NCBI GenBank assembly: GCA_054600435.1
Contig: BAAIJX010000011.1
Coordinates: 310,001-374,000, forward strand
Source: Neophaeotheca triangularis
Lineage: Eukaryota
DNA length: 64,000 nt
Reading direction: 5' to 3'
Under the pieces are notes generated by a model. It searched no databases. It saw only the letters and a program-made list of their open reading frames with translations, and was not told where the DNA came from. Of the stretch, positions 13,887 through 26,319 are shown in pieces (position 1 is the first letter of the stretch; each line of letters begins with the position of its first letter). A program made the position numbers and the translations under genes.

Positions 13887-16148
13887 TTATCTGTATAAAC
13901 CCCATCCGGAATAAGTGTTACCGTAATAATCATACTCTTCGTCAGGCCCGAGATCTTTGCGACTTGGCCGTACAACAGATACCACTCCATCCCAGTAGCC
14001 TTCTGTGTGAGACTCTTCTCCCGCAGCTGTCTGACGTTGATGCGCCATTCGTCTGCTCTTTCGAAAACCAGAAAGCAGAGCGATAGTATCGTACATTGGC
14101 CGCGAGGGACCAGCCCGTCCATGTGGGATTGACCTTTCACTGCCAATGCCCGTCTCCCACCTATGCTGCTGAACAGGTCTATCTTGCTCGTGGCTGATAT
14201 CAAGACTCGCCAATTCCGAGTCATCATCCTCACCACCAAAGAAACTGAAATCCGATTCCGCAGCGTTCCAGAGGTTTTCGCTATCGCGGTCCTCGGTCAT
14301 CGACTTGTTGGAGCTTGTCTGCCATGAGCTTGATGGGTTGCTTTCGGTACTTGTAAGTTCTGGAGCCATCTCGAGCACGATGCGTTTGAGGGCAAACGTG
14401 TTCTCTGCAGAACTTTTGATGGCCGACGTCTGTCCACGTTGGCCTGGTGGAAGAGACCAGTCTAGTGATGCCTGCAGTCTTGCGAGATGTGCTTCCTCGG
14501 CACATTTCTTGACGAAATCTATGATGCCGTGTACTTCATGTCCGCTGGCGGACATTGTAGGCACGTCAGTCAACACGAGAGTGGCAACATGCGGTAGCAT
14601 AGCTGGGTGCATGTTGCGAAGACGCGCAGTGTGAGACTCTACTCGAGCTTTGCGTTCCGCCACGACTGAGGAGTAGCTGCGTGGTCTACCACCCTTCTGG
14701 GAGAAACCAGCTGGCGTAGACGAAGAAGCCTCATTATCTACCCAACCAACTGGTCGTCCACCTTCCGACTCACCTGGGTATGCCGGTGGACCTATGCTAG
14801 GCTTCTCGGGAGCTCCTCTCGGCACTTCTTGAGTGATGAGGCCGTGATTGATCCGCAGAAACCTGAGATTGTCTTTGGCTTGACCAGAAAAGGCGGCGGT
14901 GAGCTTTCCAATACCGAGTTTCGTGGGTCCGGGCGAACTGTGAGAACTAGAGCCCAAGAGATGCTGCGATGTGGACCTGCCGACGCCGCCGACACCGCCG
15001 ACGTCGACACAGTGTAGTCTGCCAGAACCTACTAGCGCTGACACCGCTTCCACTGTCAGAAAGTTATCGGCGATGTACAGATGTGTTACCCCACCCTCAG
15101 GGGCATCCTCGATTGTCAACTTGCTCACAAAGCTGCTAGCAAAAGCTCGGCGAAGGTATGTTTCAAACTCCGTCCCTTGATAGATCCGCAGCATCTCGCT
15201 CCCCATGGCAGGACATCGCGAAGGGGACCCTTTGCCACGAAAAGAGGCTTGTGCCTGTTTCGAGTCCAGGTGAGCGGTCGGTTTGATACAGTGTTCAAGG
15301 AGCTTTTCCACGCCAGCATTCTGTATGCGATTGTTCCTCACATCCAAGCTCCTGACTCTCAATTTGATGGCTCTAGCCAATAGCTCCGCATCTTCGTCCC
15401 GCATTCCGATGCCGCGAAGTTTGAGCACTTGCAACCCAGAGAACTTTTGTAGCACAGCGAGGACGCTTTGATCCCTCGCGGCGGTAGTGTAGGAGAAGTC
15501 GAGGTACAGCAAAGACTCGAAACGACCCAGAGCTTGAGCGAGACCTTTAGACGTGACGTTGGGACAGCGTGAAGCGTCCAGTAGCCGCAGGCCAAAGGCG
15601 GGTACTGTACTCGTGGGTGCCTGAAAGGTAGAGCCCACCGACGCCGGCAATTCTATCGGACCGGCTCGAGGAGCATACCGCTCACCCATGGGATTCCATC
15701 GCGTGGTATCATCGTCTTCTCGCGCCTCCGCGGCGTGCTTGCTTCTCAGAGCTTGGAGCGCGGCATGGTCGAAGAAGGACAGACCGCGAACCACGAGAGA
15801 CTGCAGATTGGGCAGTCTGTCGAGAAGCTCTCGCAGCCAGTTGTCTCGCGGGCCATTGTAGAGTTCTGCCTGCGCTGGAGGCAGGTGGAGGGTGTGTGTC
15901 AAAGAGCGGACAAGCAGCCTAGCCGTCTGAAGCGTTCGCTTGAAGCGTGTGAGCGCCAGATAGACATCGTCGTTCTCCGTGCCGAAATGGGAGGCGGGAT
16001 TACCCCAGAGGTGAGGTATGAAGATGGCGTGCCAACGGCGGCAGACGAGGGACGCTGCGCAAAGGTCACGGGAGGGAATGTAGCGGGCGACTAGATCCCA
16101 ATGATCGACCAGGGTTGCCTCGTTGTAGGAGGGTGGTGCTGCTTCCAT
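13887..16148 (-). CDS. F-box / leucine-rich-repeat (RNI-like) protein
   Basis: Start MEAAPPSY. F-box-like WDLVARYIPSRDLCAASLVCRRWHAIFIPHLW. LRR-like units LPNLQSLVV, LRLLDASRC, LLYLDFSYT, LQVLKLRGI, VRSLDVRNN, THLYIADNFL. Confidence 0.85.
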   Translation of the reverse strand: MEAAPPSYNEATLVDHWDLVARYIPSRDLCAASLVCRRWHAIFIPHLWGNPASHFGTENDDVYLALTRFKRTLQTARLLVRSLTHTLHLPPAQAELYNGPRDNWLRELLDRLPNLQSLVVRGLSFFDHAALQALRSKHAAEAREDDDTTRWNPMGERYAPRAGPIELPASVGSTFQAPTSTVPAFGLRLLDASRCPNVTSKGLAQALGRFESLLYLDFSYTTAARDQSVLAVLQKFSGLQVLKLRGIGMRDEDAELLARAIKLRVRSLDVRNNRIQNAGVEKLLEHCIKPTAHLDSKQAQASFRGKGSPSRCPAMGSEMLRIYQGTEFETYLRRAFASSFVSKLTIEDAPEGGVTHLYIADNFLTVEAVSALVGSGRLHCVDVGGVGGVGRSTSQHLLGSSSHSSPGPTKLGIGKLTAAFSGQAKDNLRFLRINHGLITQEVPRGAPEKPSIGPPAYPGESEGGRPVGWVDNEASSSTPAGFSQKGGRPRSYSSVVAERKARVESHTARLRNMHPAMLPHVATLVLTDVPTMSASGHEVHGIIDFVKKCAEEAHLARLQASLDWSLPPGQRGQTSAIKSSAENTFALKRIVLEMAPELTSTESNPSSSWQTSSNKSMTEDRDSENLWNAAESDFSFFGGEDDDSELASLDISHEQDRPVQQHRWETGIGSERSIPHGRAGPSRPMYDTIALLSGFRKSRRMAHQRQTAAGEESHTEGYWDGVVSVVRPSRKDLGPDEEYDYYGNTYSGWGLYR

Positions 16149-16439
16149 GGTTGGGTCGATGGCACAGCGCTGTGGACGTAGCTTGATGGCGGGAAGGCGA
16201 CCATTTTGAACAATCTCGCGGATCCTGCACAGCCTTCTTGTGACGGATGTCAAGGTACGTCTACCGCCAGATGATGTCGTCGGTACAGCGGGGCATCCCC
16301 AGTCCAAGGCAACGCCAAGACCCCGCTGCCCTCCAAGTACGCCTTGTGCACGTGAAGAGAAACAGCGGTATATAGACATACATAGTACATACATACACAC
16401 ATACATGTCCCACTCAATGCCCCTCTCCACCCCCTGAGC

Positions 16440-17678
16440 ATGTCCGCCGACTTCTTCGCCGGCTATATCAGCGGCGCCATTGGCATCCTCGTCGGCAACC
16501 CGCTCGACGTGCTCAAAACCCGCCTTCAAACCGGTACAAGCAGCTCTCGACAACCTCCGCCCCCACCCACAGGAACCGAAACACCCCATCCCAAACCCTT
16601 CAACCGCTGGACGGCTTTTGCACGAGGTTCCGCAGCCCCGATCCTCGGCTACGGCGCTTTAAATGCCCTGCTCTTCGTGACCTATAACCGTTCCCTGGCG
16701 CTCTTGACGAATGGCGGCAACCCGGACGAGAACACGCACGCGGTGCCACCACCGGCCTGGAGTCTGTGGGCGGCGGGCGCGTTGGGAGGGCTGGCGACTT
16801 TTTTCGTCTCCGCGCCTACCGAACTCGTCAAGTGCAGAGCGCAGGTTGCCGAGCCCGCGCAGAGCTCGCTGGAAGTTACGAAGCAGTTGTGGCAGGAGGG
16901 CAAGGTCAGGGCCATGTACTTAGGAGGCGGAGTGACGAGTGTGAGGGATGCGGTGGGATATGGATTCTAGTAGGTTTCTTTTGGCGCCCTTTTTCTTTCT
17001 TACCTTTTTTCCTCCCTAGTAACTGGCTTTAATCCTGGGATGGGACTTTGCTCTACTGATTGTAGTGGCCTGGTGAGTTTGTTTGTACTGAGACACTGTG
17101 TCCCATTCTGCAGTTTCTGGAGCTACGAGGCAAGCAAGCGAGCCATCACGCGCGAAGACGACAGCAACAGCAGCACCGCCGTCAAAGTCATGCTGTGTGG
17201 CGGCCTAGCCGGCGTGATAACCTGGGCTTCCGTATTCCCTCTAGGTAGTTCATCTTTCCAAATCAACCTGTCTACTTCCAGAACCCACTCGTAGCTGACA
17301 TATCCCATGCCGCCTCTAAAGACGTGATCAAGTCTCGTGTCCAAACGTGGGATCTCGTGCATTGCCCCAACAGACCGCCCTCGTCGGAGAGCCGTCCTCT
17401 GCTTGATAGCCAACCCAGCAAGACAACATCCAGACCGAGCACTTTCGCCATAGCCAAACATGCCTACCAAACCGAGGGCCTAAGCGTTTTCTTCCGTGGC
17501 CTGGGTATCTGCAGCGCGAGAGCCTTCATTGTCAACGCAGTCCAATGGGCGGTACGAGCTCCCTGCCAAAGCTGAAAAACATGTCTGAAAGACTCTTCTC
17601 GCTGACCTATCTCATCGCCAGGTCTACGAGTGGACCATGCGAGCGCTCCAAGCCACGCCATTACCGACACCACCCTGA
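16440..17678 (+). CDS. Mitochondrial carrier family protein (carnitine/YMC-like); introns 16970-17113, 17245-17321, 17552-17621
   Basis: Three MCF signatures: PLDVLKTRLQ, PTELVKCRAQ and PL|DVIKSRVQ. C-terminal RAFIVNAVQWA|VYEW. Confidence 0.9.
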
Positions 17679-18499
17679 AACAACCTCCTTCCGAAAGTCA
17701 TAACTGCAAACGACTGGGACCGCAATCTCTCACGCAAGCATACAGCTCCCCAAACCGATCAAAAGCGGCTCGTGTCAGCCCCGATTGAACCTCACGCACT
17801 ACCTCAAACCCCAAACCTCCTCTTCAAGCCATAGATCCGCAAAGATAGAATCCATAGAATCGAATTATATCATACCACAGCACCTTCTCTGACACCATCG
17901 CCGTCGAAATGCCCTCGTACACCCTCCCCACCACCATCACATTATCACCGCACAGCAATGACGTCCACGACCAAACCCGATACTCAAACCATCTACCAAA
18001 CCGAGCCACGACCAGCTCCACGCATTGACCTTTCACACACACACCCAGCAACAATGTATAAAAGCAGGCACCATTTTTCGTCTTTTCTCAGCTACAGTTA
18101 TAAAACCCACCCCCCCTTTTTGGAAAAAAGAGGAGACCGGCAGATAGCAGCATCCACCCACCCGTTTCCTCAAGTCTTGGACCATAGCTTCCTTTTAATT
18201 TGTTTGCTGTTGCCTCCTCCACCGCGACCATCAACCGTCTCCTCCACGTTTTGCACTGCCCGCTGAAGCATGAACACGCCGACGAGGGCTGCTAAGTGCT
18301 AGCAGTAGCAGCAGCAGAAACAAAAAGAAACGCCCTCCACTCCCGTCGCAAAAGATGATTGTCAAAAGCCCGAGCAGCAGCAACAACAGCAGTCCGTCGT
18401 CATCAAGTCAGATCACCACGAAGGCAGCCCTCATCAACGACGGGTAGCCCACCACCGCACGCACGCAAACTCATGACCTTATGACCGGACAACTCCCCC

Positions 18500-21400
18500 T
18501 TACATCATCTGATCCTGGCTCATGCCCGTAGCCTCCTGGCCCTCCATCTCGCCCCCACCGCCTTGAGCGTTGAGGTACTTGACGTAAGTGAGCCCGAGCG
18601 GGCGGCCGCCGTACTGGTATCCGGTGAATTTGGAGATGGCCGTCGCGGCGTCGTCCTGGCTGGCGAACTCGACGACACCAGTGCCGCGCGAGCGCCCGTT
18701 GGGCTCGTATTGGCACTCGGCGCGCTCGACTTTGCCGATGGTCGTGAAGAGCTCGATGAGGTCTTCAGAAGTTGTGGACCAGGGGAGCTAGTTTGAGGAA
18801 ATTTGCGTTAGTGGGCTGCTCCTTGTTTCGTGGATGGCAGGAGGGTGGGGGTGTTTGAACTTACGTTGCGCACGTAGATGATGGGACTGGGGTCGCTACC
18901 AGAGGTGGCGAAGTCGGTGAAAGGGTTGGGGGCCGGTGGGGCCGCGGCGGGAGCAGCGGGAGCGCCGTAAGCACCACCACCAGAGGGAGGCGCGCCGCCG
19001 TAACCTCCACCACCGTACCCACCACGACCACCGAAGCCGCCACCATAAGCGCCACGGGGAGGGCCACCGTAGCCGCCACCGAAGCCACCACGGGGGCCGA
19101 ATCCTCCTCCAAAGCCACCGCGGCCGTAGCCTCCGCCAAAGCCGCCGCGGCCGCCGAAACCAGCGCCACCAGCGAAGCGGTCCTCGCGCACTTCGAGCAT
19201 GCGGCCCTGCCAGTCGTAGCCGTTGAACTGGGCGATGGCGTTCTGAGCATCATCGGGGTTGTCGAAAGCGACGATGCCGGAGCCCTTGGGACGACCGTCA
19301 GGGGCGATGTGAACGTCGGCGCGGATGACGGCACCAACGGTGACAGCCTGGCGGAAGAGATCCTTCAGATCCTGCCAGCCAACGGTGTAGGGGAGCTATC
19401 TATGGGTCAGTGTCTGCAGCGGTGACAATGTAAAGTGTGACGGGGGGCTTACGTTGGCAACGTAGACCTGGCGGCCAGCTCCACCGCCACCCATGCCCAT
19501 GCCCATGCCTCCGCCGTAGCCGCCGCCGTAGCCGCCACGCGGGCCACCAAACCCTCCACCTTGCATGCCTGGGCCACCAGCCCCAGCACCTGGCGCATTG
19601 AAGCGTGGCTCGGTTTCACGGTCCTGTGTATGATCAGCAAAGCGTGCTGCATACAATGGTTGCTGGCTGTGCTTACCTCGCGAACGTAGATGAGACGACC
19701 CATGAGGTTCTGGTTGCTCAGGGTGTTGATGGCAGCGGCAGCCTGGTCACGGTTGGCGTACTCGACGATACCGCAGCCCTTGCTCATGCCGTTGGGAAGG
19801 AGAAGGATGTCTGCGAACAAGACCTCACCAGCTGTGCAGTGTTAGCAAGCCGTGTCGCTCTAAGCAGCAAAGATCGTCTCGAACTCACCCTGACGCATAA
19901 AGTCCTTGAGATGGTGCCATTTGACCTCGTAGGCAAGGTTGCCAACATAGACGCGACGGTCTTGCTGGGAATTCTCGCGGACGTTGGTAGTCATGGTTTC
20001 TTTGGCGGCCGAGCGCTCTTCGTAAGATCGAGGTGGCGGGGGAGCGCGGTCACGGTTGTAGGAGCCGCTGTGCGAGTCGCGGTGGCGGTCGCCGTTGATG
20101 GGGGAGCGGTCGCGGTCGGAACGTCTACGGTGTCCGTCGTCGGGGGAGCGAGATCTGCCGCGGTCGTCACGGTATCTGCGCTCTGGGGTCCTAGATCGCT
20201 GTGTATCCATGTCAGTATCTTTCGTCTCTGCACGAACAGCGGCCTTCTTTCGCATCGTGAGCTCCATCTCCATCCTGGGTGGGTGTCCGTCGCGTAAAGG
20301 TCCGGGGGGAGGTGCGTAGTTGAGTCGGCTGTCTGAATAGGGCGAATGATGCTGTTTCAGAGTAGGAGCGAGTACCCCAAGACAGCAGTGTCTTCGAGGT
20401 TCGCGCTCAAGCTGGATGCCAAGCCAGGAACAGAGGGGTCTTGGCAGCAGCGCTTTGACGATCATGACACCGTGAGTCTTCTTCGCGTGAAACTTCGCCC
20501 TTCACTCTGCTAAGACAGACATTCAACTCATGTGAAGTGCGGCCGCCGAATGCATGTTGGCACCTAGTAGGATGAAGCACGAGCAGTGTAACATGGATTT
20601 GCGCCACGAGTTGTACTCCAGTGACAATAGATCGAAAGGGAGTCGCAGTCTAAGGTGAAGGTAACGAACTCCCAACAGCGCATCAGTCGGATTCGCGGCC
20701 GCTTTGCGAGTCGCCGTGAAGAAAGGCATTCGATAGTCTGGAAACGATCACTGGCACCTGGAAACCTCTTGCTGGAGCGAAGTGAGCCTGTTGCGTCCAA
20801 ACACATGGCAAGGAGCGAAGGACTAGCGCCTCAACGCGTCTCGGCAGCGAAATGGCGATGGTGCGATCTTGGTGAGATTGGGACGCGGTGCGAATACTTT
20901 TAAGACCGGCAGTGACCCCAGAGCGACAGCAGGCGTGAAAAACATCCGGGTGCCAGTACATCACATGAAGCCGAATAATGGGATGATATTCTTTCGCCGA
21001 GCACAAGTGGAGTGGATCTTGAACCAGTATGGGTACGAAGTCGTTTGGAAGTAAGGAAGATGAAGCCATGCGGGGGTATGGCTCGCTTGACCAGGCCTGC
21101 GGCGGTATACTGGACGCTGATGACCGTTTACCAGTCAACGACCCCGCGGGGCAGACATCAAGAGCGAGGAGCAGGCCAAGAAACACCATTCGACAAGGTA
21201 TGGCTGCGTGAGGAAGCCAGAAAATTTGGTCAAGATCCAGCGCGGCGGACCCGAACATACATCCAGCAGTCTAGGTGGGTGATCCGAAGAGTGAAGTTTT
21301 GGCGAGCGAGCAGCGAGTAGGTAATCGGAAAGACCTCATCTTGCAGTGCTTCGTGTCCAAATGGCGTATGGCGAGCATGCAGGGTGTTTACCAGCTCGAG

Positions 21401-22618
21401 CAAGAATTCGGCATGGTGGCCTAACGTTGCGGACGGTTGGAAGTTCCGTGGCGGCATCCACGACATCAAGGGCCCGTGTTGTTGAAGCTTCGTGTGTAGT
21501 CGCGCTCACGACGCAGCGGTCCACCCTTGCTCGTCCAGGCTCGGATCCACCCAATCTCGATCCTTTGTAGGCTGGAGTCACAGGTTGCTGCCTGAGTTTG
21601 ATCTTTGCTGTGGTGTAACGAAGTACAGTGGGCAGTTGGAAGACTTCATGAGCGTCGCCATTGGCTTCAGCTCCTGGGTGAAAGGAGCTTGCCTGGTGCT
21701 TGCGGACGTAGAGCTTCGATGAAGCTTGAGTATGCTCGCCACGGAAGGCTGTTATCCTCCAAGACATTGCCTCAAGGTCATGTAGAGTCTGAGCATACTG
21801 GGCAAGACATGCGAGGAGCGCAAGTAGAGCTGCAATCTTTACTTGGCTTGGGTGTGTCAACAAAAGCTTCTTCAACATGCAAAGACATGACAGGACGGTA
21901 GCCCTCAGACAACATACTGGTGACGACTCGGCATGAAGCGGCGGAGTCTGATGGCGACTTGAAGAATCGATGACAGGCAGCTTGGTGAGTATGTGCCGCA
22001 GTTGCTTGAAGTAAAGCTTTGGTTGTAGACGCCTCACGCAGCAAACGCTGGCTTTCTCCTCCTGGGACAGTGTGCGCGTATGACGGCAAAGCTTGCGTGA
22101 AGACATGCGCTGAGAGGCGCGGACTTATATACGCGTTTATGAACGCCGTCCAGCTGTCCGTCTTCTCTGCCGATTTGTTCGCCCGCAAAAGCCCGTCTTT
22201 GCTGTTTCCCGAAGCTTTCATCCACGACTGAGCCCGAGCCTTGCGGTTTCCATTTATCCGAGTATGCCGTCCGTCAGTCTTTCCGATCCAGCAGTCCACC
22301 GACCAATTGCGCAGTGCAGCACCATAGCGTCCAGAAGCCCGGCCATCCATCAAGGTAGGTGTGAAGAAGAAGCTCACGAAGCGAAGTCTACACGTGTTCA
22401 TATTAAAGGAAGGGGGTGAAGAGTAACTCACGCTGTCGCGAGGACGGTAGTTGTCGTCTATTGAAGATTGTAAGCGGGTTACTCTGAGAGAGACGAGTTG
22501 ATGGCAGATGTTGTGAGTGGAAGAAGAGAAGAGAGAGAGAGGTGGGAAGGGAGGGGGGGGGGAGAGGGAGGTGAAGTCAAGCGCGATTGGCTTGGCGGGG
22601 GGGAGGACGCTTACCCAT
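18500..22618 (-). CDS. GBP2: SR/RGG three-RRM mRNA-shuttling protein, Gbp2/Hrb1 (A. nidulans SnxA) family; exons 22615-22618, 22432-22457, 19889-20198, 19677-19831, 19453-19623, 18865-19395, 18500-18787
   Basis: RRM1 [33 protein letters not shown]2 [24 protein letters not shown]3 [21 protein letters not shown]-rich N-terminus and RGG linkers. 5' exons inferred from phase-compatible splice sites giving [18 protein letters not shown]. Confidence 0.85.
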
Positions 22619-22989
22619 TTTGTGCTTGGAAGCAGGAACTGAAGGGAGTCGAAGGGGCGGGCGGCTAGAGCTTGGTCAGTCTGAGAAGGCAGTGCTGCAG
22701 ATGCGTCGATGATGAATGGCAGTAATGAGGGCCAGTCGGAAGATGTAGGTGGGGCGCGAGAGGGTGGTTGAAGTGTGTCGGGCAGGTTTGCTTGGGTTTG
22801 CTTCGAGGGTTACAGGTAGCAGGGCAGGCAGCTGTAAAGTCCCGCGCGGGCGCAGCTAATAGCCGACCGACGGGCCCAGCGAATGAGTTCAAAGAGCAGT
22901 GCCTCCCACGGGCCAAACGGAACAGACAGCTGCAGGCTCGGTCAAGGGACTTGAGCACTAGCGAGACGCGCCCTTTTCTTCGGCTACCG

Positions 22990-23077
22990 GTGATGGTGGT
23001 GGTGGTGGTGGTGGTGGTGGTGGTAATGCTGCTACCAGCCTACCACTTTGCGTGATGAGACGATGATGATGATGATG
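22990..23077. repeat. (GGT)n and (GAT)n trinucleotide microsatellites
   Basis: About 10 GGT units followed by about 6 GAT units, upstream of the GBP2-like gene. Confidence 0.85.
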
Positions 23078-25425
23078 AGGCCGCGCCGGGGACCCAATGC
23101 CAACGGCGACCAGCGCTCGCCCCCTGATGGCGCGTCTTTTGCATAGGCGTGCAGGATAAGGGAACATGTTGGGGAGCACCTTGATGAGTACGTACCGGCT
23201 TTTTCGCGAGACAGCGCTGTGCTTTGGTTTTGTTTTGCCGAAGCTACGCGTATCGCGCGTGTTGTTGAATAAGAAGGCAAAGTGAGATCGCCGAGGCTCA
23301 AAGAGTGACGGGCGCTGGGATTAGGTATCAGGGAAAGCAAGTCGGCAGTAAAAGGTGGCGTGGTATCCAGTGTCTATTGGGTGGGTGGTGAGAAGGAACC
23401 TGAATGGAGGAAGTCAAGAGGGAAAGCCGGTACTCTGCTTTGCGGCTGGCCAGAGACGAATCAAGCTAGCCCAGCAGATTGCGGGTGAATGCCCGGTCCG
23501 CCCGCTATAGGAGGTAGTGGATGAACGACAGCTCCTAAATACAAGTACCTACAGTACCGAGGTAGCCAATCAAAACAATCAATGGGCTTCTACTATCGCA
23601 ACACCCAGCAGAACTAGTCTGAAGTGGAAACGCACACTATGCTGGTAAAAACAATAGACTCTTGCGATAACGCGGCAGATGAAGTGGGTCGAAGACTACA
23701 ACAGCTCTGCGTAGGCAACAGGGCAGCCACCAGCGTTCGGAGAGGAACAAAGTCACCTGGACACGACACTTCTCCGAGAGCATACAACGCAAATGCATTT
23801 CTGTATTATACTGCGAAGCGCCGTGATCAGACACGTGCACTTCACCTATTGAGTCGCTCTAATCATTGCCCCTAAGGTAAGTAAAGGTTACCACGGCAAA
23901 AAGAACCCCCATCCCCCCCCCCTCCTCCCCAAGTTGAGCGTCTCAAGTCTAGCAGTTCCAGCTCACGCTACAGAAGCATCGTACCGATGACCCAAAACTA
24001 GCAGTCACGAGGATCGGCATCACCCTCGAGGTCGAGGTCGACATGCAATCGACATTTCTAGACAAGCGAACATAGTAACTACAGCAAAGGAAGAAAGCGT
24101 TCACCGGTCTATGCAAGCACTTCTATATTGTTCTTGAAAGTCCGACCGCGCCATAGTATGATGCACCTGGCCCGGAAAATCTGACTTATTAGACGATTTC
24201 CAGCAGCTATTAACAAGATAACTTCGCCATAGCAAGAATCAAAAATTCCAGGGCGGTCTTCTTGGTTGAAGCTGGACTTCCGGCCGCCTTCCGATGGCTG
24301 GCTTCTAGGGCGAATGACTAGGTGTTTCCTCTGCTACCGACACGATGGCTGGACCTTTCAGCTCGAATACCCGCAAGACATTAAGATGGTCACTGCTGTC
24401 TGCTCTCCGGAGTTGCGATGAATGGTTTTGCGAGGCCCAAGACGAGATACTGAGTTTGCCATCATTGCCGCTCTTCCCTAGACAAAGTTACGATAAACAG
24501 CGCGTCGAGCTCAGAGGTCAAAGCCTTTTTCTGTGGATTGTAATCGGTTGCGATCCTTCGTCCTTGGAGCTCAACGCACAGTACTAGATGGCAGGATAGC
24601 CTAAAGCTCTGCCTCCCTAAAAGCTGGTCATCAACATATGAGTAGATCTGGAAAGGTTTCCGCTTCTTATGAGTCCTCAACCCTCTCGACGAGCCCAGAC
24701 GACTCCCGGTTGGATTCTAATTGTGAGGATGTCGATTTGGAATGAACATGTTTCTAAAGGCGCGTGGCATGGTTCAACATCCAGAGTTCCCTCTCTTGCG
24801 GAGCCATGTTTCCTGTCGACGGGTTGCCTGAATCCCTTATGAAGTAGACGATTTTGTCCCCGAATCTACTCCAGTTTGACTTGCGACTCCGCAACGAACA
24901 GCTGCCCCATCGTCTTTGTTTTGAGCTGGGTAATTAGCCACTGCTCGTTCCCAACACAGCATCTAGGCTGGTCTTGTTTCGTCCTGAAGAACTATGATGC
25001 GTTTCCGAGACAGACTGGCGAATGGACAATACGTTGTGAGCTGCGTATCGCAAACCACCGCGGCCAAGACTCCCATATCCAGCATTGTTCCATCATATCT
25101 ACTTCATTCATCGGCACTAAAAGTTTGCAGGAGTAGGAGGTTGGTGGATGAGGTCTGAAAGCCGCAAGGAAATACCTCATGTCAAGGTTGAGTTCCATGC
25201 TGGATGCAGGAGCGAGCGGATGCCAAGCTTTCGGCAAACGGAACGCCCCGGCCTAGCTTGAGCCTCATCCCGTCGGCCAAACACGTGCACGTCAGTCAGT
25301 CAACCACTACCGTGAACTTCACCTTCAGGTATATCTTGACTCTCCATCCACAACACTTCAACGACCAACCCCTACTCCTTGCAAACATCCGTCTAAGTCG
25401 CAAAACTTAACCAGAAGCCGCAACC

Positions 25426-26319
25426 ATGGCAGAAAACTCCCTCAAACAAACAATCCAACAGCTCGAAGGACTCCGCGACTCCAACATCCAACAAGCACCC
25501 CAGCTCCTCTCGCGTGCCAAACTCGATCTCCTCCGTCTGAATGCTCTCGTACCGGATGAAGACACGTCTGCCCAGCACCTCCTCCTAGCCCGCCGTATCC
25601 TCGAACTCGGCGCCCTGCTCAGCATCCGCCAGCGTGACACCGACGCCTTCACCCGCTACTTCCAGCAATTACAACCGTTCTACCAACTTCCCGACGAAAG
25701 CTGGGGAAGTGCACAGACCAGAGATCAGAATGAGAAGTCGAAGGTCACTGGTCTGTACCTGCTGTTGCTTCTGAGTGTTGGGGATTACGGTGGCTTCCAC
25801 ACTGTCCTCGAAGGGCTGGAGGTGGCGTATGGTGGCAAGCAACAGCTGGAAAAGGATGAGATGATTCAGTATCCGGTCAGGTTGGAGCAGGCGTTAATGG
25901 AAGGGAGCTATGACCGGGTCTGGGGCGAGACCAAAGGCGAGAGGGTGCCGAGCGAGGAGTTTGGTGTGTTCTCCGAGGTATGCACACGCTATGACTTCCT
26001 CACAGCTGCGCACAGCTTGGCTAATAATCGTGTCCCGCAGGTACTCATCAACACCATCCGCTCGGAGATCGCTTCCTGTTCTGAGCGCGCATACCCATCC
26101 CTCCCCATCTCCAACGCAAAGAACCTCCTCTTCCTCGACTCCGAAGGTGCAGTCGTGCAATTCGCACAGTCTCGCGGCTGGGTAGCAAGGGATGGGCGCA
26201 TTTACTTCCCTCAGCGAGAAGAGGAGCTGATGAACGCGGAGAAAGATGTCATGAGCGCGAGTGGCGAGGTCATCGAGAATACTCTTGGGTACGCGAGGAA
26301 GCTAGAGACAATCGTGTAA
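25426..26319 (+). CDS. RPN12: 26S proteasome lid subunit Rpn12; intron 25978-26040
   Basis: ARRILELGALLSI, FTRYFQQLQPFY, GLYLLLLL, YPVRLEQALMEGSYDRVW, TIRSEIASCSERAY and a terminal YARKLETIV. Confidence 0.95.
   Translation: MAENSLKQTIQQLEGLRDSNIQQAPQLLSRAKLDLLRLNALVPDEDTSAQHLLLARRILELGALLSIRQRDTDAFTRYFQQLQPFYQLPDESWGSAQTRDQNEKSKVTGLYLLLLLSVGDYGGFHTVLEGLEVAYGGKQQLEKDEMIQYPVRLEQALMEGSYDRVWGETKGERVPSEEFGVFSEVCTRYDFLTAAHSLANNRVPQVLINTIRSEIASCSERAYPSLPISNAKNLLFLDSEGAVVQFAQSRGWVARDGRIYFPQREEELMNAEKDVMSASGEVIENTLGYARKLETIV

Follow-up and report, generated by a model that had tools for sequence, protein, structure and literature searches.

The minus strand of positions 18500-22618 in a 64,000-nucleotide (nt) window of the Neophaeotheca triangularis genome (contig BAAIJX010000011.1, forward-strand positions 310,001 to 374,000; assembly GCA_054600435.1) holds a gene for an SR-like RNA-binding protein of the Gbp2/Hrb1 type, in a seven-exon model with six introns. 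Joined by coordinates, exons 1-7 yield 1485 nt in frame with one terminal stop, encoding 494 amino acids (aa), and all six introns have GT..AG ends, with lengths of 157, 2233, 57, 53, 57 and 77 nt. In our best explanation, to which we assign a probability of roughly 85%, the model captures the true 5′ end of the gene: hidden start exons, consisting of a 4-nt coding exon and a 26-nt micro-exon, are separated by a 2233-nt intron from the exon that encodes the RS domain.

Three stretches of the protein match the Pfam family RRM_1 (E 1.7e-52). Among solved structures in the PDB, RRM3 of Hrb1 is the best match (2mzt, E 5.6e-18), and RRM3 of Gbp2 (E 5.4e-15) and RRM2 and RRM1 of Hrb1 are matched as well. 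Together, these hits justify the description 'Gbp2/Hrb1-like'. The Arg/Ser-rich region that precedes RRM1, encoded by exon 3, aligns with the RS regions of orthologues and is less purely RS than that of most relatives. The Saccharomyces cerevisiae proteins Gbp2 and Hrb1, which are SR-like shuttling factors of mRNA surveillance, have the same domain order, an N-terminal RS-rich region followed by three RRMs, and their orthologues in filamentous fungi include Aspergillus nidulans SNXA and Fusarium graminearum Sgh1. The abstract of PMC4705658 describes THO binding, a property linked with the atypical third RRM of this type of protein, and a passage of PMC9605648 places the RS domain of Sgh1 at residues 15-80, along with three RRMs. 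We conclude that the locus is the single Gbp2/Hrb1-type gene of a Dothideomycete. Its SR-like product combines an RS domain with three RRMs and is nothing out of the ordinary within the Gbp2/Hrb1/SNXA/Sgh1 family. The gene differs from its yeast counterparts by its six introns, its split start codon region and its micro-exon; to our knowledge, yeast GBP2 and HRB1 are intronless.

Two sources complement the sequence in the feature list below. The translation of exon 3 is 100% identical to part of NCBI protein P0002 (509 aa, 'hypothetical protein MBLNU230_g0875t1 [Neophaeotheca triangularis]'). RNA data came from three marine metatranscriptome runs (X1-X3), each of which shares a small part of its words with the window; their contigs were aligned to positions 18000-22960 at a likeness of at least 90% and cover them very sparsely.

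22615..22618, minus strand: coding part of exon 1, made up of ATG 22618-22616 and G 22615, the first base of the Asp-2 codon; context CACAAAATGG, then GTAAGC
22458..22614, minus strand: intron 1, 157 nt, GTAAGC..TAG, phase 1, pyrimidine-rich, with a branch-like site GCTTAC at 22477-22472
22432..22457, minus strand: micro-exon, 26 nt, encoding (D)DNYRPRDS; joined to exon 3 on an RNA contig
20199..22431, minus strand: intron 2, 2233 nt, GTGAGT (donor at 22431)..CAG, phase 0; RNA joint 20198/22432
20199..20216, minus strand: branch site and acceptor of intron 2, ACTGAC at 20216-20211 and CAG ending at 20199
19889..20198, minus strand: exon 3, RS-rich N-terminal domain and start of RRM1, beginning CGA TCT AGG; covered by contigs, with joints on both sides
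19832..19888, minus strand: intron 3, 57 nt; RNA joint 19831/19889 in X1
19677..19831, minus strand: exon 4, remainder of RRM1; identical to P0002
19624..19676, minus strand: intron 4, 53 nt; from exon joining, no RNA joint seen
19453..19623, minus strand: exon 5, Gly-rich linker; from RNA contigs and exon joining
19396..19452, minus strand: intron 5, 57 nt; RNA joint 19395/19453 in X2, with a shorter side of 21 letters
18865..19395, minus strand: exon 6, RRM2 and a Gly/Arg-rich linker
18788..18864, minus strand: intron 6, 77 nt; from exon joining, no RNA joint seen
18500..18787, minus strand: exon 7, RRM3, best matched by the RRM3 of Hrb1/Gbp2; stop codon TAA at 18502-18500

Upon close examination of the 5′ region, ATG 22618 proved to be the sole ATG on the minus strand within 22700-22402, and by eye no further one was seen on that strand upstream, back to 22960. 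The 5′ untranslated region of exon 1 would run upstream of 22618, where transcription presumably starts. Without splicing of intron 1, the frame opened by this ATG closes after 13 codons. The branch-like site of intron 1 lies 14-19 nt before its acceptor. For a branch site followed by an acceptor, the consensus has only two matches in 22700-20150, one of which is the end of intron 2, and it is there, flanked by ACTGAC (branch site) and CAG (acceptor), that an in-frame ATG (20210-20208) mimics a start codon ('MDTQ'). The micro-exon is what the term usually denotes, an internal coding exon of at most about 30 nt that is flanked by introns and conserved. Likewise, intron 2 (20199-22431) is a GT-AG spliceosomal intron, with a donor, a branch site, an acceptor and a spliced junction in RNA. 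An earlier, sequence-only proposal of this 5′ architecture (the original prediction) had its coordinates, splice signals and phases all correct, as both our reading of the sequence and the joining of the exons show. Its statement that intron 2 is more than ten times longer than any other intron called stands within this gene, whose remaining introns measure 157, 57, 53, 57 and 77 nt.

The RNA contigs reveal three joints, two of 57 nt (19395/19453 and 19831/19889) and one of 2233 nt (20198/22432). The last skips exactly 2233 nt with CT..AC ends, that is GT..AG on the minus strand, and occurs in one contig from one of the three runs, the place of the joint being uncovered in X2 and X3. The contig that carries it, X1 record 5, is 281 nt long at a depth of 3.4 and aligns with 247 letters in exon 3 and 31 letters in 22432-22462. 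Thus intron 2 is taken out as one unit and the mature frame runs from the micro-exon directly into the RS exon, as this contig shows. The original prediction had set this junction, 22432/20198, against transcripts that start without any joint to 22432, and it is the junction that we found.

The same contig bears indirectly on the junction between exon 1 and the micro-exon. On its 31-letter side the alignment continues for 5 nt past the micro-exon, up to 22462, with a single difference, and three letters at the start of the record stay unaligned. If exon 1 were spliced to the micro-exon, the mRNA would read ...CAAAATGG before it where the genome reads ...TTCAATAG, which predicts three mismatches followed by five positions with one mismatch. 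The observed pattern of the alignment equals this prediction, which supports the exon 1/micro-exon junction indirectly, from the alignment pattern and not from the letters of the contig. The uncovered parts of the region (exon 1, most of intron 2 and 20199-20500) carry no weight in either direction.

The N-termini of orthologues provide a second line of evidence. With exon 3 as the query, we found 99 homologues in the database, and 13 of them carry an N-terminal ..YR[PQ][RS].. peptide with which the predicted N-terminus of the 494-aa model aligns. The protein of Acrodontium crateriforme (P0064) starts MDDNYRPS.. (MDDNYRPSRESRDSRSRSPERG), the Pyricularia orthologue reads MADSGDNYRPRE... (in Pyricularia grisea, MADSGDNYRPRERSRSP), and the homologues of Phialemonium thermophilum and Endocarpon pusillum read MADTGDTYRPRERSRSP and MDSADSYRPRERERSRSP, respectively. 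The peptide is also present in Saitoella and in Orbiliomycetes (a class assignment of our own). Presence or absence of the micro-exon peptide in orthologues had been proposed as a test of the original prediction, and the outcome, presence, was in its favor. Database models with a correct N-terminus already imply a split start and a micro-exon, and the architecture as such is not new to the databases.

The third line of evidence comes from gene structure in relatives, for which we used 80 fungal loci (numbered with an L) that an alignment of the exon-3 region retrieved from metagenome contigs. These loci are redundant, as the same species recurs across several metagenomes. We looked for a micro-exon pattern (TAY-Arg-Pro/Gln with an in-phase GT[AG]AG donor) together with an acceptor ahead of the first RS run, and found such a pair upstream of the RS exon in 56 of the 80 loci. 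Because the same micro-exon with an in-phase donor recurs in so many relatives, the architecture is beyond chance. Upstream of the micro-exon, ATGG followed by GT is present in 21 of 28 representative loci, and ATGCAGG/GT (here and below, a slash marks the exon boundary) in three more. An in-frame model of exon 1 and the micro-exon could be fitted in 29 distinct loci. There the coding part of exon 1 is 4 or 7 nt long, intron 1 spans 66-286 nt and the micro-exon 23-29 nt; in L080 the micro-exon measures 35 nt. By manual count, 22 of the 26 nt of the window's micro-exon are identical to that of L019.

Some of the contigs resemble fully spliced complementary DNA (cDNA). L031 and L061 read MADSGDTYRPGSRERSRSP and MGDSDTYRPRESRDRSRS, and the intron homologous to intron 1 is spliced out in both; in L053 and L064 intron 2 is gone and no ATG is in view. 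Together with the RNA junction and the N-termini of orthologues, the gene structure of relatives backs the 4-nt start exon, the 26-nt micro-exon and the 2233-nt intron that had been predicted from the sequence. In the relatives as in the window, the branch-like site of intron 1 is often a non-consensus GCTYAY: it is GCTTAC in the window, GCTCAC in L001, L014, L025 and L039, GCTTAT in L016 and L046, and GCTGAC or CTAAC in other lineages.

Taken together, these observations point to the following sequence of events, which we word as a proposal. Transcription would start upstream of 22618 and translation at the first AUG, at 22618. Intron 1 (157 nt) would split codon 2 after its first base, and the 26-nt micro-exon would supply residues 2-10, ahead of the 2233-nt intron and the RS exon. 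Intron 2 is the characteristically long intron of the family, grown here to the largest size seen, with a sequence that is lineage-specific, non-coding and, within the window, non-repetitive. As comparison with relatives shows, the layout (ATG plus 1 or 4 nt, an intron, a micro-exon of about 23-35 nt with ..YRP.. toward its end, a long intron and the RS exon) is ancestral in Pezizomycotina.

Several observations weigh on the other side. The support from RNA is one contig of depth 3.4 from a metatranscriptome, and exon 1 itself has no RNA cover. The RNA contigs are 95-99% identical to the window, which makes a close relative or another strain their source, and not necessarily the window's isolate. 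Among the relatives, 24 of the 80 loci lack the pair of micro-exon and acceptor, and in some loci the acceptor rule was 6 nt off, which was corrected in the refit of the distinct loci. Within the stretch scanned (at most 2.5 kb) and with a relaxed pattern, neither L034 (9.9 kb of upstream sequence) nor L032 (2.2 kb) has a micro-exon candidate; their upstream exon or exons may be divergent or lie farther away. As for the rest of the unpaired loci, in five the YRP peptide runs directly into the RS exon (L031, L052, L053, L061 and L064), L056 has the micro-exon and failed the acceptor rule, L013 has a variant, ..DESYR/GTAAGT, 239 nt upstream, and the remaining ones mostly have less than 1 kb of upstream sequence. 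The layout is thus widespread and not shown to be universal. In relatives of the L034 and L032 kind ('SFSDTRQ/RDRSRSP' and 'NDEQ/RDRSRSP'), an evident branch site and acceptor precede the RS exon.

Passages of the Sgh1 paper (PMC9605648) leave the 5′ structure of the gene undiscussed, and in the literature searched, the SNXA paper excluded, we found no description of such a structure for a Gbp2/Hrb1-type gene. According to the abstract of the paper on the microexon switch in Trichoderma virens Xlr2 (PMC11121469), functional microexons had earlier been undescribed in filamentous fungi. The exon described here resembles that of Xlr2 in being a very short internal coding exon in a Pezizomycotina gene. 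The Xlr2 micro-exon is alternatively included, whereas here we saw no skipping and the micro-exon looks constitutive and ancient. For gene prediction, the conserved combination of a 4-nt coding first exon and a micro-exon, often missed by ab initio predictors, is a clean test case.

The length of intron 2 sets it apart throughout the family. In 37 distinct loci it measures about 207-961 nt (median 307), and 1046 nt in L080, vs a median of 60 nt (range 49-131) for intron 3 in 50 distinct loci. With 2233 nt, the window's intron 2 is the longest among the relatives examined, and far larger than the other introns of its gene; the GC content of its 2.2-kb interior is 52-56%. Our finding is thus a corrected gene model together with the most extreme example known to us of a long intron that is family-wide: in every relative examined, one intron of an SR-like gene is several-fold longer than the fungal norm, and its sequence is not conserved.

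That the architecture is real and its size functionless is a reading to which we give about even odds. In eukaryotes, introns that come first or lie near the 5′ end tend to exceed the others in length; being tolerant of insertions at this 5′-proximal position, the intron would simply have gained 1-2 kb of neutral DNA in this lineage. Besides that general tendency, the reading is favored by lengths that vary widely across lineages (207-2233 nt) and by an interior that has neither sequence conservation with any relative nor a match to a structured RNA. What it does not explain is that intron 2 is short in none of the 37 distinct loci nor in L080, the minimum being about 207 nt vs the intron 3 median of 60. 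This suggests that something resists the usual pressure toward short fungal introns, as is argued for srp2 in a passage of PMC4379411.

The parallel with srp2 offers one candidate for that something. As described in passages of Lareau & Brenner 2015 (PMC4379411), srp2, the fungal orthologue of SRSF5, retains a specific intron, the intron-retained form of Neurospora crassa srp2 is stabilised in a strain that lacks nam7, a factor of nonsense-mediated mRNA decay (NMD), and the sequence of the long intron 'is not notably conserved' between species. The gene studied here is likewise an SR-type gene of an ascomycete in which one intron lies far above the fungal norm, is unconserved in sequence and brings in an in-frame stop upon retention. 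It differs from srp2 in belonging to another gene family and in the 5′-proximal position of the intron, ahead of the RS domain. Retention and NMD sensitivity are features of srp2 in those passages; the features shared by our gene are length, non-conservation and the in-frame stop. Retention of intron 2 would lead to an in-frame stop in 24 of 26 relatives after a median of 27 codons, and after 217 codons in the window, so that translation of retained transcripts would end short of every RRM. By analogy with srp2, slow or incomplete removal of intron 2 might leave retained transcripts with a premature stop, which NMD would degrade and thereby set the level of the protein. We regard such a regulatory role as possible, at somewhat worse than even odds; the odds given here to the several readings overlap and do not have to add up. 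The micro-exon frame stays open for 217 codons into intron 2 (21781-22431, minus strand), and this read-through frame, which is peculiar to the window, lacks homologues and has non-coding codon usage, is probably due to chance.

A number of searches temper the regulatory idea, which the original prediction had put forward for this intron and for which the hints are indirect: the length of intron 2 in all relatives and the srp2 precedent. A permissive Rfam scan (E<=1) of 20000-23000 returned no match. In blastn, intron 2 reached at best 30 bits against the 80 loci, as did shuffled controls (28-31 bits), and a MAFFT alignment of intron 2 from 16 relatives contained no conserved block, only the splice signals being kept. 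No retained intron or alternative joint was seen in the three RNA runs, at their very sparse cover.

A feature that the introns do share is a depletion of certain motifs on the sense strand, relative to expectations from dinucleotide shuffles. In the window's intron 2, the trinucleotides TAA, TAG and TGA occur 48 times in the sense orientation vs 69.9 ± 5.9 expected (z -3.7), and 83 times vs 84.7 on the antisense strand. Branch-like CTRAY occurs twice on the sense strand vs 9.7 expected (one of 300 shuffles was as low), CTAA is absent vs 5.5 expected, and YAG occurs 41 times vs 55.7. The same holds for the interiors of intron 2 from 26 distinct relatives (9783 nt in sum), in which sense stops number 238 vs 295.8 and CTRAY 19 vs 36.6 expected, none of 200 shuffles being as low in either case; on their antisense strands, stops number 383 vs 386.6 and CTRAY 23 vs 24.9. 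Plausibly, though as no more than a hint, the depletion means that decoy signals resembling the branch site or either splice site are avoided in an intron that an intron-definition spliceosome must remove as one unit, and one-step removal may be under selection. This interpretation has to reckon with a depletion of similar size on some control strands elsewhere in the window, strands that are not established as untranscribed. A 2.2-kb intron beside introns of 53-157 nt is, for its part, a useful substrate for studying how intron-definition splicing copes with length.

A bolder version of the regulatory idea would make the long intron a control device that is selected for length and free of sequence constraint, kept across Pezizomycotina, with 2.2 kb as its most extreme setting. 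Gbp2/Hrb1 proteins police splicing before export, and such a protein might gauge the splicing capacity of the cell by means of its own 5′ region, which is hard to splice: the 4-nt start exon, the micro-exon and a long intron cleared of decoy signals on the sense strand. Transcripts that retain the intron would again be removed by NMD. We consider this unlikely as it stands. Apart from this version, the parallel with the NMD-coupled intron of srp2 makes the gene a concrete candidate in which to test whether an mRNA-surveillance factor regulates itself.

A different question is whether the public annotation could be right for some transcripts. A promoter inside the 2.2 kb would then give rise to mRNAs from about 20300-20500, translated from ATG 20273 (MEMELT..) or ATG 20210 (MDTQ..) into a protein that lacks the micro-exon peptide. 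Compared with the 494-aa model, which from residue 11 is identical to P0002 from residue 26, P0002 starts inside the tail of intron 2 and thus has 25 spurious residues in place of 10 real ones. That GenBank chose this start, that no stop interrupts the frame between 20501 and the end of exon 3, and that the intron tail of some relatives likewise contains an in-frame ATG (..DMAQ/RERS in L005 and L043, ..NMQ/RSRS in L008) speak in favor of an internal promoter; the 25 extra codons score as coding-like (0.42), over a stretch too short to weigh. However, ATG 20210 lies between the branch site and the acceptor of an intron that the RNA contig shows to be spliced precisely, from 20198 to the micro-exon, and orthologues share the micro-exon peptide but have nothing that corresponds to the P0002 extension. 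Moreover, starts of this kind in the models of other species end in Q or K, which correspond to the acceptor's CAG or AAG and are the mark of a read-through. We therefore judge an internal promoter improbable. By the comparison of the sequences, the start of P0002 is wrong and the GenBank model is mis-annotated. The original prediction had taken the 'MDTQ' start for the tail of an intron, and the RNA splice at 20198, the N-termini of orthologues and the gene structure of relatives all bear it out.

The same error recurs in orthologue models from several fungal classes. Many other homologue models begin a few residues before ..Q/RERSRSP or ..K/RERSRSP, and judged by this signature they start at an in-frame ATG in the intron tail and read through the CAG or AAG acceptor. 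As many orthologue models start in the intron tail, the error of P0002 is a common one. Such wrong N-termini affect constructs, tags and N-terminal analyses of proteins of the Gbp2/Hrb1/SNXA/Sgh1 type. In Fusarium, the models of the P0044/P0067 group start MESQLVLLPANKLK/RERSRSP, or MEPQ.. in P0067, and end in AAG directly before the RS run, like an intron tail that has been read through; the description of F. graminearum Sgh1 in passages of PMC9605648, with the RS domain beginning at residue 15, fits such a model. In L063, which we set beside these Fusarium models, the micro-exon was not seen in the 525 nt of upstream sequence.

On its sense strand, the 2.2 kb of intron 2 contains frames that stay open for 262, 217 and 195 codons, and the longest is matched by only 8 of 500 dinucleotide shuffles. 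None of 14 intronic open reading frames (ORFs) exceeds the Pfam cut-off (best E-value 0.095). The 262-aa ORF matches itself alone, both in a collection of 5.8 billion clustered proteins and when 1.84 billion representatives are searched exhaustively with phmmer; a word-based search found no homologue of the 217-aa ORF. The codon-usage scores of the intronic ORFs are -0.05 to -0.06, with a GC content at third codon positions (GC3) of 0.52-0.55, vs +0.14 to +0.42 and a GC3 of 0.67-0.83 for the exons of the gene. Because the ORFs belong to no Pfam family, lack homologues and have these codon-usage values, the interior of intron 2 is non-coding.

These data bear on the idea that the 2.2 kb hold an independent unit, which would have enlarged the intron by inserting there and could be a non-coding RNA, a nested gene, or a decayed transposon or pseudogene. 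Apart from the long open frames and the depletion of stops, what speaks for such a unit is a 151-nt contig from an RNA library at 21491-21626 with an unexplained loose end, and a 256-aa ORF that is recorded as a protein predicted on a 4023-nt contig. Set against these are the results of the Pfam and homologue searches, the non-coding codon usage and GC3, the lack of an Rfam match at E<=1 and of a second copy of intron 2 in the 64-kb window, and the fact that RNA libraries may contain DNA. The much shorter intron 2 of relatives shows the same depletion of stops, which therefore looks like a property of the intron and not of a cargo. A nested gene or transposon, supported by none of Pfam, homologue searches, phmmer and codon usage, is unlikely, and we judge an independent unit of any of these kinds very improbable.

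Both observations on that side have features of their own. The 151-nt contig, from X1, has four differing letters and 15 loose letters (ten A, then GGGTC) before 21491. Read in either orientation, the break there is neither a splice site nor a poly(A) tail; pre-mRNA, carried-over DNA, a difference between strains or a chimeric contig could each account for it. The 256-aa ORF (21339-22106, minus strand) stands in the protein collection as P0101, predicted on a separate 4023-nt contig, and some gene caller has therefore taken a non-coding ORF for a protein.

About 400 nt upstream of the start codon lie two microsatellites (22990-23075, minus strand), (CCA)n followed by CCATCACC, and (CAT)n. The upstream neighbour, divergently oriented at 25411-26316 on the plus strand, is an ORF of the CSN8/PSMD8/eIF3K family (E 3.7e-17), and the downstream neighbour at 13890-16658 on the minus strand is an F-box-like ORF of 923 codons (E 1.6e-6).

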